This document shows positions 20,782-38,804 of a DNA stretch of 64,000 nt, piece by piece. This stretch comes from Octopus sinensis (Eukaryota): positions 101,804,001 through 101,868,000 of the forward strand of contig NC_043002.1 in assembly GCF_006345805.1 (NCBI RefSeq), in the 5' to 3' direction. The notes under the pieces are model-generated. The model was not told the DNA's origin, ran no database searches, and saw only the letters and a program-made list of their open reading frames with translations. Each line of letters opens with the position of its first letter. Position 1 is the first letter of the stretch. The position numbers were made by a program, and so were the translations under genes.

Positions 20782-21198
20782 GTATATATCTATATACACG
20801 GCAGACTTCTTTCGGTTTCCGTCAATCAAATCTATTCACAAAGCCTTGGTCGGCCCGGAGCTATAGTGCAAAACACTTGTCAAAGGTGCGAACCACTGGG
20901 ACCGACCCCGGAACCATGGGGATGAGAATCAAGCTTCGTACCACACAGCCACACCTAAAACACATAGAAGCTTAACCGCTTCAGTATACACACAAACACA
21001 CATATGCACACATACACAAAGTCACACATATGTGTATATCCTTATAATAGTGATATACACGCATATTCTCGTCGAACAACATGTATATGTATGTTTGTAT
21101 TCACATGTGTAAATTGTATATAGCCTTATTATAGACACACACACACACATATTCAAATGCACATGTATATGTTAATATATATATATATATATATATAT

Positions 21199-21482
21199 CA
21201 GCGACAGTGGACGCTGGAAAAAGTATAAGTATTTGTGAAGGAAATCTAATTCTCGGCGACAACTATGATTGTCACACGCTGACGAGAGGTCAATACCTCG
21301 AAACTCGAGTCCGTGTGTATCATAAGTTGAAGACGGGAAGGATGACTTCCCTTTGCAAATACTGACAGGACACAGAAAGTGTGTCTATGGCCAGCTGGAG
21401 GAGTGTGTCCTCCTGGGGCTAAAAACTACAGTAGCATCCACCCTTAGGGGTTAGCCATATTGAAATGGCAAAAATACGTCAC
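21199..21482 (+). mobile_element. 284-bp ORF-less hammerhead-bearing element inserted in (TA)n (retrozyme/PLE pLTR-like)
   Basis: GC-richer island bounded by (TA)n on both sides. It holds a canonical HHR and long-range complementary arms (21228-21246 with 21344-21363; 21260-21269 with 21319-21329). Confidence 0.75.
21273..21317 (+). ncRNA. Canonical type I hammerhead ribozyme
   Basis: Stem I CACACG/CGTGTG; core CTGACGA (21279-85); stem II GAGGT-caat-ACCTC; GAAAC (21300-04); palindromic stem III AC-TCGA-GT; cleavage triplet GTC (21309-11). All conserved core positions are intact. Confidence 0.92.
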
Positions 21483-21866
21483 TATATATATATGAATATA
21501 TCCTGATAATGCACACACACACACGTGTCTGTCTGAATGTGTGTATGTAAACATGTATATATATTTATAAACATATTTCACTAAGAAATTATTTTCTCTT
21601 GAATAAGGACGCTACGTGAGTTTGATATGAAAGAAAGATGAGAACAGAATTTTTCATGGGCTGAGTATTTATGTTAAACGTTCTCTGTTTGGGATAATAA
21701 GTCATACGGATCGTTATTTATGAAAGCTGTCATACATTTATATTCTGACCAAACACAAACATATATACACATAAAACACACATATTCACAAACATTGAGA
21801 GACATATAGATGAACGTATGCACATAAAGCACTTGTACGTGCGCACATACGCACATGCACTTAAAC

Positions 21867-23433: not shown

Positions 23434-23821
23434 CCAGCAGTATCGCCCGGCGTTGCTCGGGTTTGTAAGGGAAATACCTATATAAGCATTTTTAGAGATG
23501 TAAAGTATAATAGCCATCTCAATATGGCTAACCACAAGGGGTGTGTTACTGCAGCTTTTTACGTTCTGAGATTTAATAAATAATAAGAGTTACTTCCCTT
23601 ATATATGCCAAAAATGCATTAAAAATGGGAAAAATTGATGGTAATTTTTTTTTAAATCGTAGACTCATCGTAGATGCGCGCTAATACCCAGAAGGGCTCG
23701 ATATGAATCACGACTATAAGATACCCGGTTTTGGTTAAACTGCACCGCAAAATGTGGGAGTAGTTAGGAATCTAAATCGTAGGAGACAGACAACACACAA
23801 CCTCACTTTTATATATAAAGA
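23434..23821 (-). mobile_element. Non-autonomous Helitron-type element
   Basis: The minus strand starts A|TCTTTATATATAAAAG. Its 3' end CCCTTACAAACCCGAGCAACGCCGGGCGATACTGCTGG matches the 1233-1617 element except for the terminal CTGG. Confidence 0.8.
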
Positions 23822-31530: not shown

Positions 31531-32249
31531 ACCCTTGATAAAAGAAGGTTTTGGCTAATGGCTGAACGAAAATTGGTTGCGTTCGGATACAAAAGCAAGT
31601 ATTTAGGAAATATCACTGAGATGATGGACAAACGACGACAAAGAGAGGAAGATAAAAAGTATAAATGAAAGGGAAGATACATACGTATGGATATCACTGA
31701 AACTAATTCGTCTAAAGTAATCAATACAAAATTAACAGATCCCGTGATACTTAATAGTCAGTCTCTAAATATCACAGGTCCTGACCACCCAGAGCCGTAC
31801 GTCTCCATTTAGTCTCCTATACTTGCACCATTGTCATCAACTGATGTTAGCAAGTCAACAGATCGAAGACACAACAGTAATTCTTTAGCATCACCCACTG
31901 CGAAAATTGGACAGATATCAAACACCAATTACATCCAATGTTACTACCAGGTTCGCCCTTGTTTACTAAAACTTGCACTTGTAAAATTCTATCTAATTTC
32001 CTTTTGAACAGAAACTGTCAGACTGAAAATATAAGATACTGTTGTTCAGTAATTACGACTGCAGCTGCAAGAGAATACATAGGCGCTACAATCAAGAATT
32101 TCCAGAGTCACATATATGCCTTCTTCAAAAACCTCAAGTTGTACCATTCAACTTAAACCATTACTCATTACAATGGAGCATACGAAAATATGCAACACTA
32201 TACCAGCCATTCCAGATGTCATTATATTAAACATTTGCGAAGAGTAACC

Positions 32250-33223
32250 ATGCCACGCACAAAAAATTCAGCAGAACTGTCAGATTTTCAAAGAGGTCGT
32301 ATTGATGGACAATCTGAGGGTGGTCTTAGCCAGCGAAAAGTTGGCGAAAGTCTTCAAATTCCTCTTGCTACTGTTACTAGAATTATAGTGCAATTCAAAA
32401 CCCAAGGAAAAGAATCAATAGATTCTCGTCCCAGCCGACGTGGGGCCCTCGGAAAGGAAGCTTCGCTGTTTGAAGAGAATTGTGGAAAACGAACCCCGTT
32501 CGAATGCTTCTGACATTGCAAAACAGCAAGAAGTTAGTCCAAGAACATGTGTTACATATCTGCATAACCTTGTGTATTATGGACGAGCAATTAGAAGAAA
32601 ACTTCTTCAACCAATTAATATCACGAAAAGAAAGAAATGGACGAAGATGTCAGAAAAATCCAATTCATTTTGGGATAGAGTGATTTTCACAGACGAATCC
32701 AGATTTGCATTATTTTCAGCAGCGTACGTGTTTGGGTTTCGGGTTTCTCAATCAAGAATTTAATTTGAAAAGAATCCAACCAACTGTATCTCTGTAATGT
32801 TATGGGGAGCTGTCACCAGCAATGGTCGTTCTGAGCTGATCGAATGTGTTGGAACCATAAACTCTGAAAAATACATCAAAATATTAAGCAAGCACTACTT
32901 CCGATGTATTCACATGATAACATAACTAAAAATGAGTTTTTACTCATGGAAGATAGGGCTCCATGCCACACAGCGAAAAGGAATCCACAACCGCTGACTG
33001 AAAATGGGCTCAAAAAGCTTTTTTTGGCCGAGCCAATCTCCTGACTTGAACCCAATTGAAAATCTTTGAAGCATACTAGAGGAAGCTATACGAAAAACTC
33101 GACAGAAATCTAAATCTAAAGTGGGCAGAAATTCCACAAGAGACAATGACAAAGCTCATCAGTTCAATGCCAAAAAGAGTTTCTGAATTAAACACTGCAA
33201 AGGGGAGGTCAACTAAATTCTAA
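32250..33223 (+). pseudogene. Tc1-family DDE transposase, frameshifted
   Basis: N-terminal HTH (LSDFQRGRI..LSQRKVG..LQIPLATVTRII), then [53 protein letters not shown] and SMPKRV...KGRSTKF*. Several frameshifts and stops. Confidence 0.92.
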
Positions 33224-34045: not shown

Positions 34046-34110
34046 CCATGTACTAAATTAGTTTCAGCTGTTATTTTCCGCAAGGAAAACTGCAGCCATC
34101 ATCAGCATGG
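34046..34110 (-). ncRNA. Type I hammerhead ribozyme (array copy 1)
   Basis: Reverse complement reads CCATG-CTGATGA-t-GGCTG..TTTTCC-ttgc-GGAAAA..CAGCT-GAAACTAA-t-TTAGTA-CATGG. Confidence 0.88.
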
Positions 34111-36319: not shown

Positions 36320-36344
36320 CATATGCTACATTACTCGATAGTCA

Positions 36345-36407
36345 AGATAAAACTCTGAGTTTCAGATGCCGAAGTGGGAATCCACGACGCCATCTCTTCG
36401 GTTATCT
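36345..36407 (-). ncRNA. Hammerhead-like motif in PLE 3' UTR/pLTR (variant core)
   Basis: Reverse complement reads AGATAA-CCGAAGA-GATG..GTGG-attc-CCAC..CATC-t-GAAACTC-a-GAGTT-TTATCT. Stems I, II and III can be drawn; the core has C in place of U4. Confidence 0.55.
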
Positions 36408-36689: not shown

Positions 36690-38804
36690 CTATCTGTTTA
36701 CTTTAGGGGACCAAAAACGTAACAGAAATTTAGTCACATAGGGGCATGATCCGAAAAGTTCTGTCCTTGAGTTTAGACATGTAGTAGGGTCTAAGCTGCT
36801 TTTCCAGATAAGCCATCTCTCCATGTCGCATAGACGGCACCTTCTGCTGCCGTTGGTATAGGGCTTACATTTGGCCAAAATCTTCCAATGTATGTTATAA
36901 TCGACACCTTTATCTCTTAAAGACTAAATATGATTAGATAATTGTGTCGCTTTTCTTTTGTTTCTGTGCCTAAAGCTCAAAGTGTGGTTATTGAACCTGG
37001 CCTTGAACTTACCCTCTGTAAGGCCCACGTATTTCTTCGTCGAAACGGTGTCTTTAGTGGTTATAGAGTCTACGGTAGCTTCATATATGATGGTCTTGGA
37101 CATGCAAGCTCCATTTAGCGGGCACAATTCTTTATTCCTGCATGAACAGCTGTTTTCTTATTGTGTTTTTCTATGTTATGTCTGATTATGTTTTTAAAAT
37201 TGGTAGTGGAACTAAAACTAATTTTTAAATTGTGTCTATTGAAGAGTTTCCTATAAGTATGGTTAACTGGAAAATGTCTATCTATCAGTGCGAGGAAATA
37301 TTTACCTATATTGAAGGCCACTTCGGGTGAGTAAGGGGGTGTAAACCAGATGACCTTCCTATTTCTATTATTCCTTTTCCTTACTGTTGAGCTAGTAACG
37401 GGTGTATATTTTATTTTTTCGCTAAAACCACTATCTTTTAAAGCCTTATTATAAACTGCGGCAACACTATTAAAGATGTCCTTATCAGAAGAGAGGTTAG
37501 AAATCCTCTTACTAATATTTTGAACTAAATTTTTGAATACTATAGGGGGATGGCATGAACCTACATTAATATAACTTAGTCTATCATTGGGCTTCCTATA
37601 AGGCTTATAAATATACTTATTAAGATCTAAGGAAAGGTCTAAGAAATTGACAACCGTCAGGTTAGTATCTATAGTTATACTAAGTCCGAAGTATTTCATT
37701 AACTGGATAATATCCTTCCTAAAACGATCTTGTGCTGGTCCATTTGTATTAGCTATTAAGGCGAGGGCATCATCTTTGTAGATGGCGAAATGTACGTCAG
37801 GGAATGTCTTACCTAAGGTATCTAGGAGAAAAAATCCAATAAGATCGCAAATGCCTGCCCCATCATATGACCCCATGCTCACATCGAAAGCGCCCTCTGT
37901 GTCGGTGTTTTTGACCCACTTTGCGTTCTCACTGAAAAGTAAGGTCTTTCTAGCATGGAAGATTATGTCCTTATCATTTGTACTAATTTCTATGATGTCG
38001 CGAGCGAAGACGAGGGCTTTATCTAGCAGTTCTTTAGAGATAGAGGCATAAAAATCAACAATATCGATTTGTGTAAACCTCGCTTTTTTCTTATTCCTAA
38101 TGGCTTTAAACCAGTCTACGACTTCTATACTATTGGACCATTGTACTAGCCTAGTATCGGTCTTAATTTTCACATTTATTTTATCTAAAATTTCTTTACT
38201 AATAATCCCAAGTTCTGACTTGGCTGGGTTGATAAGCCTACATTTAGGGTTGGAAAGGAAGTTCTCTTTGTGATCTTTTATAGTAATAAAGGCCTCTTTT
38301 TGGGGGAGGGCTTCTATTTTTTTATCTAATTTAAGTTTAGCGGCGATGACGCTAGCTTCTTTATTAATTTCGTTATATGTCTGTGCCCTAGCCTTAGTGT
38401 AATTATTAATGATGCTGTTGTGTGTATTTGCTGTTAACTACCAGGTATAAGTTCTTAGTTTTGTCCGAAAAAAGTGCTTTTTTCTTGGAGCTTTTAATAT
38501 GTTTAATATCATTTTTCAATTTATGTTGGAAATTGTTAAAAGACTTACGAAATTTTATTTTGTTCATAATTTTCAGCAGGTCCGCTTCGAAATCTTCCAA
38601 GCCTTTAATCCTGGGAGGGAATTTTTTGGATTTTATACGATAGAAAGTGTTTTCCGTGGTGTCCGCTTCTGTATCAAAAAAGAAAGCCTTCCATCTCATG
38701 CGCTTAATTAGATCAGTAATTTTCTGTAGAAGTTTCTTTGAGTAAAGTTCCTTTGATGGGATCGGTATATTTTTCATAGAATAATCTATGTAATATGCAT
38801 CCAT
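36690..38804 (-). pseudogene. PLE polyprotein: reverse transcriptase + Cys-rich linker + GIY-YIG endonuclease (2 frameshifts, 1 stop)
   Basis: N-terminus YSMKNIPIP..KRMRWKAFFF, then AFITIKDHKENF..CRLINPAKSELG (read manually, ~38205-38300). RT motifs QIDIVDFYASI, FDVSMGSYDGA, YKDDAL and VNFLDL; IWFTPPYS; linker CSCRNKELCPLNGAC; IIYEA..KYVGLTEGKFKARFNNH; CRLCDMER; LNSRTEL. Frameshifts at ~38420 and ~37150-37190; TAG at 36924 replaces an expected Trp. Confidence 0.92.

Follow-up and report, generated by a model that had tools for sequence, protein, structure and literature searches.

The window, that is, the whole 64,000-nucleotide stretch of Octopus sinensis DNA that was analysed, contains a 5′-truncated, 284-base copy of an animal non-LTR retrozyme, a non-coding repeat with a unit of 353 nt that carries a hammerhead motif. 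Positions in the repeat unit are numbered u1–u353. The features of the window copy, and of a miniature insertion nearby, are as follows.

21175–21198, no strand: (TA)n target upstream of the copy; the last 4 nt also fit u350–u353
21199–21482, plus strand: single-arm retrozyme copy (u1–u284) with one hammerhead, lacking the tail (u285–u333)
21199–21216, plus strand: conserved 5′ hairpin, in which one pair is changed on both sides
21228–21363, plus strand: rod predicted by folding of single copies, in which stem I is prolonged by further helices
21273–21317, plus strand: type I hammerhead; core 21279–21285 and 21300–21303, palindromic stem III 21303–21310, predicted cut after C21311
21368–21413, plus strand: two 3′ hairpins (21368–21386 and 21397–21413) with compensatory pairs
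21427–21435, plus strand: 5′ arm of a helix whose partner, u296–u304, lies in the tail missing from this copy
21454–21469, plus strand: conserved hairpin directly upstream of end site 1
21482, plus strand: fixed 3′ end site 1 (u284–u287), the putative reverse-transcription start
21483–21493, no strand: (TA)n target downstream, joined to the 3′ end of the copy
23500–23579, minus strand: miniature two-armed insertion of an older subfamily, made of an 18-nt inverted tail piece and a 62-nt site-1 piece

When the 284 bases were used to search the 2.72-Gb genome, 1209 candidates emerged, and the 40 that were scored yielded 123 matches with a spacing of 353 nt; the unit consists of the 284 nt of the window copy and 69 more. 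The window copy lacks about 65–69 nt of this unit, and its 5′ edge at 21199 marks where it was truncated, not where the element ends; the edge could also be set at 21195, as ATAT is common to the unit and the TA run. The second fixed 3′ end, site 2 (u326–u333), is missing from it. A previous interpretation based on the letters of the window (the sequence-only reading) had taken the 284 bp for a complete element, either a solo monomer or a solo pLTR; the copy falls short of the 353-nt unit, and the Penelope-like element (PLE) loci read contained no autonomous pLTR homologue. Its description of a structured, non-autonomous mobile element that targets TA repeats was borne out, as the repeat is non-coding, multi-copy and hammerhead-bearing, TA runs lie on both sides of the window copy, and TA directly follows 72 of the 76 young arms that were mapped. 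No ORF of 90 aa overlaps the window copy, and two frames of 70–76 aa at this position gave no Pfam match.

The exact hammerhead 33-mer is present in 654 copies genome-wide, and a looser family motif pattern gave 1675 matches (0 for the reversed-pattern control). The copies form at least three age classes in arrays of 1–7 units, mostly in (TA)n. One older class is about 75–80% identical to the young unit, the copies of another are 80–85% identical to the query used for that class, and both have the same period and the same inverted layout. Each 353-nt tandem unit encodes one type I hammerhead, and its length lies within the 150–450 nt that define non-LTR retrozymes.

The hammerhead motif at 21273–21317 is, judged by its sequence, real. 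Stem I is predicted to form between CACACG (21273–21278) and CGTGTG (21312–21317); these enclose CTGACGA (21279–21285), stem II (21286–21299), GAAA (21300–21303) and stem III with its palindromic loop (21303–21310), followed by the GTC that ends at 21311. The window copy has all the marks of a type I hammerhead (CUGANGA, GAAA, NUH, three stems, stem I open), and it matched Rfam RF00163 (type I) over the full model with 32.2 bits (E 2.5e-6). An Rfam scan of the window at the gathering threshold returned no match, because this score is below the gathering score of 34. The intact core, three stems and GUC at 21311 that had been read from the letters agree with both the sequence and the full-model match. 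The hammerhead fold lies 6.8 kcal/mol above the minimum-energy fold of the window copy. The 3–8 core pair was changed from C3–G8 to U–A in one of 28 aligned copies and was U–A in 5 of 100 family motifs listed, while C was found at core position 4 in 24 of the 100 (both counted by hand). According to PMC3088659, U–A at this pair is a known active covariation and C at position 4 is said to weaken cleavage. Stem III is invariant across copies, only its palindromic loop swapping, and the core is mostly canonical even in the oldest age class. Eight of nine frog retrozymes are reported not to cleave in vitro (10.64898/2026.07.22.740005).

Folding of the window copy gave −100 kcal/mol for the plus strand (z −5.6; 0 of 200 shuffles as good). 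The minus strand was also well folded (z −5.4), and the whole unit folded as a circle gave −119.4 kcal/mol (z −6.7, 60 shuffles). The proposed extension of stem I into a rod of ~135 nt was recovered between 21228 and 21363, with pair probabilities near 1.0 at the sampled pairs, and a rod recurred in most of the single-copy folds of older units that were inspected. Three of four 3′ hairpins proposed with it (GACAC/GTGTC, GGAGGA/TCCTCC and CCAT/ATGG) likewise had pair probabilities near 1.0; the fourth, GCTAA/TTAGC, was rejected, its pair probability being 0.0 and most older copies reading GCTAC there. In the full unit the helix u229–u237/u296–u304 closes a junction, and site 1 sits in the loop of its last hairpin. 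A covariation check, as the sequence-only reading had suggested, revealed compensatory changes in the helices of the 28 aligned copies, whose kinship was ignored: 49 named pairs were 95.8% paired and 10 of the 49 were changed on both sides. Neither value was reached in 500 shuffles, and slid controls were 28–41% paired. Further pair types were unexceptional in this test (59 of 500 shuffles), and one rod pair failed in 22 of the 28 copies. The named pairs leave out the outer rod, which is misaligned between the copies and for that reason also escaped RNAalifold.

The ends of the repeat were mapped in a young sample of 49 loci with 76 arms (40 loci from the best unit matches and nine from position-ordered lists), arms of <94% identity or <56 nt having been dropped beforehand. 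The 3′ ends fell at u283–u289 (site 1) in 46 arms, at u326–u333 (site 2) in 28 and elsewhere in two; the 5′ ends were scattered. Two fixed 3′ end sites about 46 nt apart are the signature of a PLE ‘tail’, which lies between two internal reverse-transcription start sites (PMC11167929). Circular permutation of the copies, which the sequence-only reading had expected of reverse transcription from a circular RNA, was absent, as 74 of the 76 arms end at one of the two fixed sites. This is compatible with a circle, as PLEs begin reverse transcription from sites within the template (PMC11167929).

One arm per site was found in 24 of the 25 young loci with arms on both strands, and in 12 of 13 evaluable loci from a further 18 that were chosen for close hammerhead pairs (L183 was cut by the locus edge and L185 was counted once). 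In total, 36 of 38 young inverted insertions had one arm per site and none used the same site twice; the other two are inverted pieces that are short and internal. Single-arm young loci ended at site 1 in 21 of 24 cases. Older subfamilies, read by eye, paired site 1 with site 2 in 17 of 18 loci (site 2 being taken as u326–u346, with L056 and L094 left out); older locus L199 has site 1 on both arms. The junctions between arms (n = 23) showed an overlap of 1–10 nt in 13, a blunt join in one and inserts in nine. Target duplications of ≥8 nt other than pure TA were present at 15 of 53 older loci, compared with 98 of 2756 mismatched flank pairs, and those of older copies outside TA were 9–15 nt, including microhomology. 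The family has the layout of PLE insertions, with 5′ truncation, partial tandems, an inverted 5′ arm and a tail at one end, as described for Neptune PLEs (PMC8557442; PMC11167929).

Several other elements were found in the window. Between 33894 and 35252 there is a second hammerhead family, whose unit measures about 497 nt (the 34-kb array). As previously claimed, it is unrelated in sequence to the window copy (no blastn match at E<1), yet it is the same kind of element: an inverted arm and two tandem units lie in (TA)n, with hammerheads at 34105 (minus), 34454 (plus) and 34951 (plus), and the plus arm overshoots the end of the minus arm by roughly 75 nt, giving one end of each kind. The 80-nt two-armed piece at 23500–23579 lies inside a repeat at 23434–23821 (minus strand) with a TC start, a hairpin and a CTRG end, which we take to be Helitron-like. 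At five other loci of this repeat (L064, L066, L068–L070) the 80-nt piece is flanked by a direct repeat of about 12 nt, and the repeat probably accounts for many of the 6792 matches of a family search. At 36340–36401 (minus strand), next to a TA run, there is another hammerhead-like motif, whose stem II is long and whose core has C at position 4; tblastn weakly matched a frame at 37118–38437 (minus strand) with a PLE protein. Further unrelated hammerhead motifs occur near TA runs at L104, L105, L114, L133, L137–L139, L141 and L147, so the genome appears to encode many hammerhead families. Pfam analysis of 63 of the 100 window frames identified no host gene and gave only two weak Tc1-type matches, to the transposase helix-turn-helix at 32157–32760 (plus strand), both below the cut-off.

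The same genome encodes candidate helpers, in the form of intact frames of 775–883 aa with RT and GIY-YIG domains and a CxxxxCxxC-type linker. By the description in PMC8557442 these would be of Neptune or Nematis type, and they are called Neptune here, a label given without a tree. Young families of Neptune type number at least three (A, B and C), each with a hammerhead and two ends before TA; intact frames are shown for two of them. In both inverted insertions of family B that were seen whole (L203 and L205), the tail arm pairs with a no-tail arm. Family B is also present as whole-element tandems (L206). The cores of the autonomous families (L131–L141, L201–L208, L247–L251) include non-canonical forms, with U3–A8 in families A and C and C at position 4 in young family B, where it occurs in intact PLEs too.

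The possibility that the retrozyme is itself an autonomous PLE, or the solo pLTR of one, was rejected, as no continuity with an RT and GIY-YIG frame was seen in the family loci analysed and no shared pLTR sequence in the PLE loci compared. In 58 PLE loci compared by blastn, the matches were separate insertions, and family C was compared by eye; the genome contains 5029 GIY-YIG candidates. Analysis of 180 family loci by tblastn placed PLE pieces near four, of which only L186 was joined directly, in mid-frame. The copy beside the 775-aa frame at L133 was examined for such continuity and is a separate insertion. At L186/L239 (G000:C2:87635270–87639690), a family-C piece joins a 3.7-lap retrozyme arm via a 62-nt inverted piece. 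The family-C piece is 5′-truncated, about 3 kb long, 99% identical to other copies and in the same direction, and reading of the sequence by eye found the remainder of the PLE to be absent after the mid-frame junction. This single case fits a template switch, or a retrozyme insertion beside a family-C copy combined with a deletion. We are highly confident that the window element is a PLE-mobilised non-coding hammerhead repeat.

The arrays also bear on what was copied. At five polymorphic sites, 22/22, 32/32, 27/29, 29/31 and 19/20 arrays were uniform; 11–14 would be expected from independent draws. Twelve arrays (L023, L032, L036, L037, L181, L182, L185–L188, L194 and L198) carry a variant in every covered lap which is fixed in no other sampled array, and such variants are present in both arms of L023, L032, L036, L185, L188, L194 and L198, and of L187 for 138A. 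Variants alternate with a period of two in L047 and L186, and partly in L181, where lap 1 lacks 166A and breaks the period. The all-lap variants were judged private among 67 young loci and may be shared beyond this sample; 266G seemed rare in the first set and proved common in the further 18 loci. The simplest reading that fits these lap patterns is repeated copying of one monomer or dimer, and the template was probably an RNA circle. Counting against a circle, uniform linear source arrays would likewise give uniform arrays. In two runs of one study (among four examined of 24), a contig of 383 nt spans the unit and overlaps its own start (353 + 30); it supports neither side, because tandem DNA would give the same contig and the RNA status of the runs is a guess.

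Some loci show local events of another kind. Laps 1 and 2 of L183 share four changes, and insertions are doubled in L048, L185 and L192. Laps 1 and 5 of L049 have five changes in common, among them a compensatory pair in stem I and an alteration of the conserved GAAA, a pattern which fits a four-unit template or a later duplication. Together these five loci show duplication at the DNA level or in the assembly. The idea that all arrays are minisatellites, grown from single PLE ends after insertion by amplification of the DNA (or in the assembly), is put forward in the discussion of 10.64898/2026.07.22.740005; it could draw on the local duplications in L183, L048, L185 and L192 and on numerous indels that suggest assembly noise. 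We nevertheless consider it extremely improbable, as tandem laps carry common variants in both inverted arms, starts are fixed while 5′ ends are scattered, and older arrays lie within single target duplications.

Template jumping is a property of non-LTR reverse transcriptases, and a self-cleaved linear monomer could be copied by an enzyme that, on reaching the 5′ end of the monomer, moves back to the 3′ end of the same molecule for the next lap. This would give the same all-lap variants and would require a working hammerhead, but it is very unlikely: the cut site was crossed in 101 passes with only one 5′ end within 5 nt, and with neither a pile-up of 5′ ends nor recurring indels, and the period-2 arrays would be left unexplained.

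In a further alternative, the same PLE enzyme and the same two start sites would act on an uncut linear multimer from uniform source arrays, with the hammerhead as a passenger. Uncut RNA is the main in vitro substrate in PMC11167929, and the spread of position-4 variants and the whole-element tandems of family B fit this alternative. So do L047 and L095, the two arrays whose arms have unit-specific variants in common: the first lap of the site-1 arm corresponds to the second lap of the site-2 arm, and the arms begin on different units, an offset that the single-monomer picture does not predict. We think a linear multimer unlikely all the same. It needs source arrays that are uniform for new variants, whereas arrays in place carry 95 differences confined to single units, a sign that units are hardly homogenised after insertion. 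Unless re-amplified, arrays could only become shorter, yet seven-lap arrays occur, and the core is mostly canonical, or compensated, in the oldest class.

The preferred reading is that a Penelope-like enzyme of Neptune type probably placed the window copy in its (TA)n target, and that its template was likely a small RNA circle. A locus with at least two units would be transcribed, and two hammerheads would release a monomer, or sometimes a dimer, which a host ligase would close, as shown for mussel and axolotl retrozymes. The PLE protein would then nick an AT-rich target on each strand, with about 10 nt between the nicks, one nick priming at site 1 and the other at site 2. Each cDNA would circle for up to seven laps before stopping at a variable point, and the two 5′ ends would be joined by microhomology or short inserts; alternatively the site-1 arm alone would be fixed, as in the window copy. 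More tentatively, and with rather less than even confidence, the insertions may be a genomic record of rolling-circle reverse transcription, in which a pair of PLE enzymes works on one circle, each subunit at one fixed start site and primed from opposite target strands, both running several laps, so that all-lap and period-2 variants would mark monomer and dimer circles. If this is true, the L186 junction would have arisen by template switching and would identify Neptune family C as the helper.

At the level of sequence, the octopus family has the features of animal non-LTR retrozymes. Like the metazoan non-LTR retrozymes described in PMC7229834 and 10.64898/2026.07.22.740005, it has a type I hammerhead in each non-coding tandem unit (353 nt, compared with 350–390 nt in mussels), G+C <50%, thousands of motifs, duplications >4 nt and PLEs in the same genome. 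Unlike them as described there, it has no homologous pLTR among the PLE loci compared, and it is known here from DNA sequence. Mussel units occur as circles, and a return route has been proposed in which tandem cDNA is made from a primed circle with PLEs as likely helpers (PMC7229834); the 2026 preprint already ties retrozymes to PLEs, with a transposon match in 24 of 57 frog families, nearly all to PLEs (10.64898/2026.07.22.740005). Fixed paired ends and lap-wise variant patterns are features of the octopus family that do not figure in the retrozyme descriptions consulted. With the Neptune PLEs of PMC8557442 and PMC11167929 it further shares two 3′ ends downstream of the hammerhead and a microsatellite bias; by those accounts it differs in having no ORF, a tail of about 46 nt rather than 30–40 nt, and a full-size hammerhead in a long rod. 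The one-site-per-arm pairing is strict here, whereas these PLE papers describe the tail as ‘often at one end’. In the purified PLE system the hammerhead is reported to be dispensable for insertion, and the start sites to be used alike by both strands (PMC11167929); both points count against the preferred reading. Plant LTR retrozymes, as described in PMC4918200, are also non-coding and hammerhead-bearing with a highly paired predicted RNA, but have type III hammerheads in LTRs, a PBS and PPT, and 4-nt target duplications, whereas the octopus family has type I hammerheads, no LTR pair and longer duplications.

The literature covered, which included few subscription papers and set supplements aside, described neither the 353-nt family nor strict arm pairing nor variants that follow the laps; for the genomic reinsertion of animal retrozymes it gave a proposed mechanism and no demonstration. 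Supplements of the cited papers may already show retrozyme ends or tails. The window copy is by itself ordinary and would be a dead end, because it has one hammerhead and no tail. The family to which it belongs is young and numerous and lies beside Neptune-type PLEs. With a template of 353 nt, two ends already mapped and candidate enzymes, it lends itself to a direct test, and its genomic footprints open the proposed route from circle to DNA to experiment. Any account of the PLE mechanism must also accommodate the strict pairing of tail and no-tail arms, and if two enzymes do work as a pair on one rolling circle, the one-site-per-arm rule would be a general PLE mechanism.
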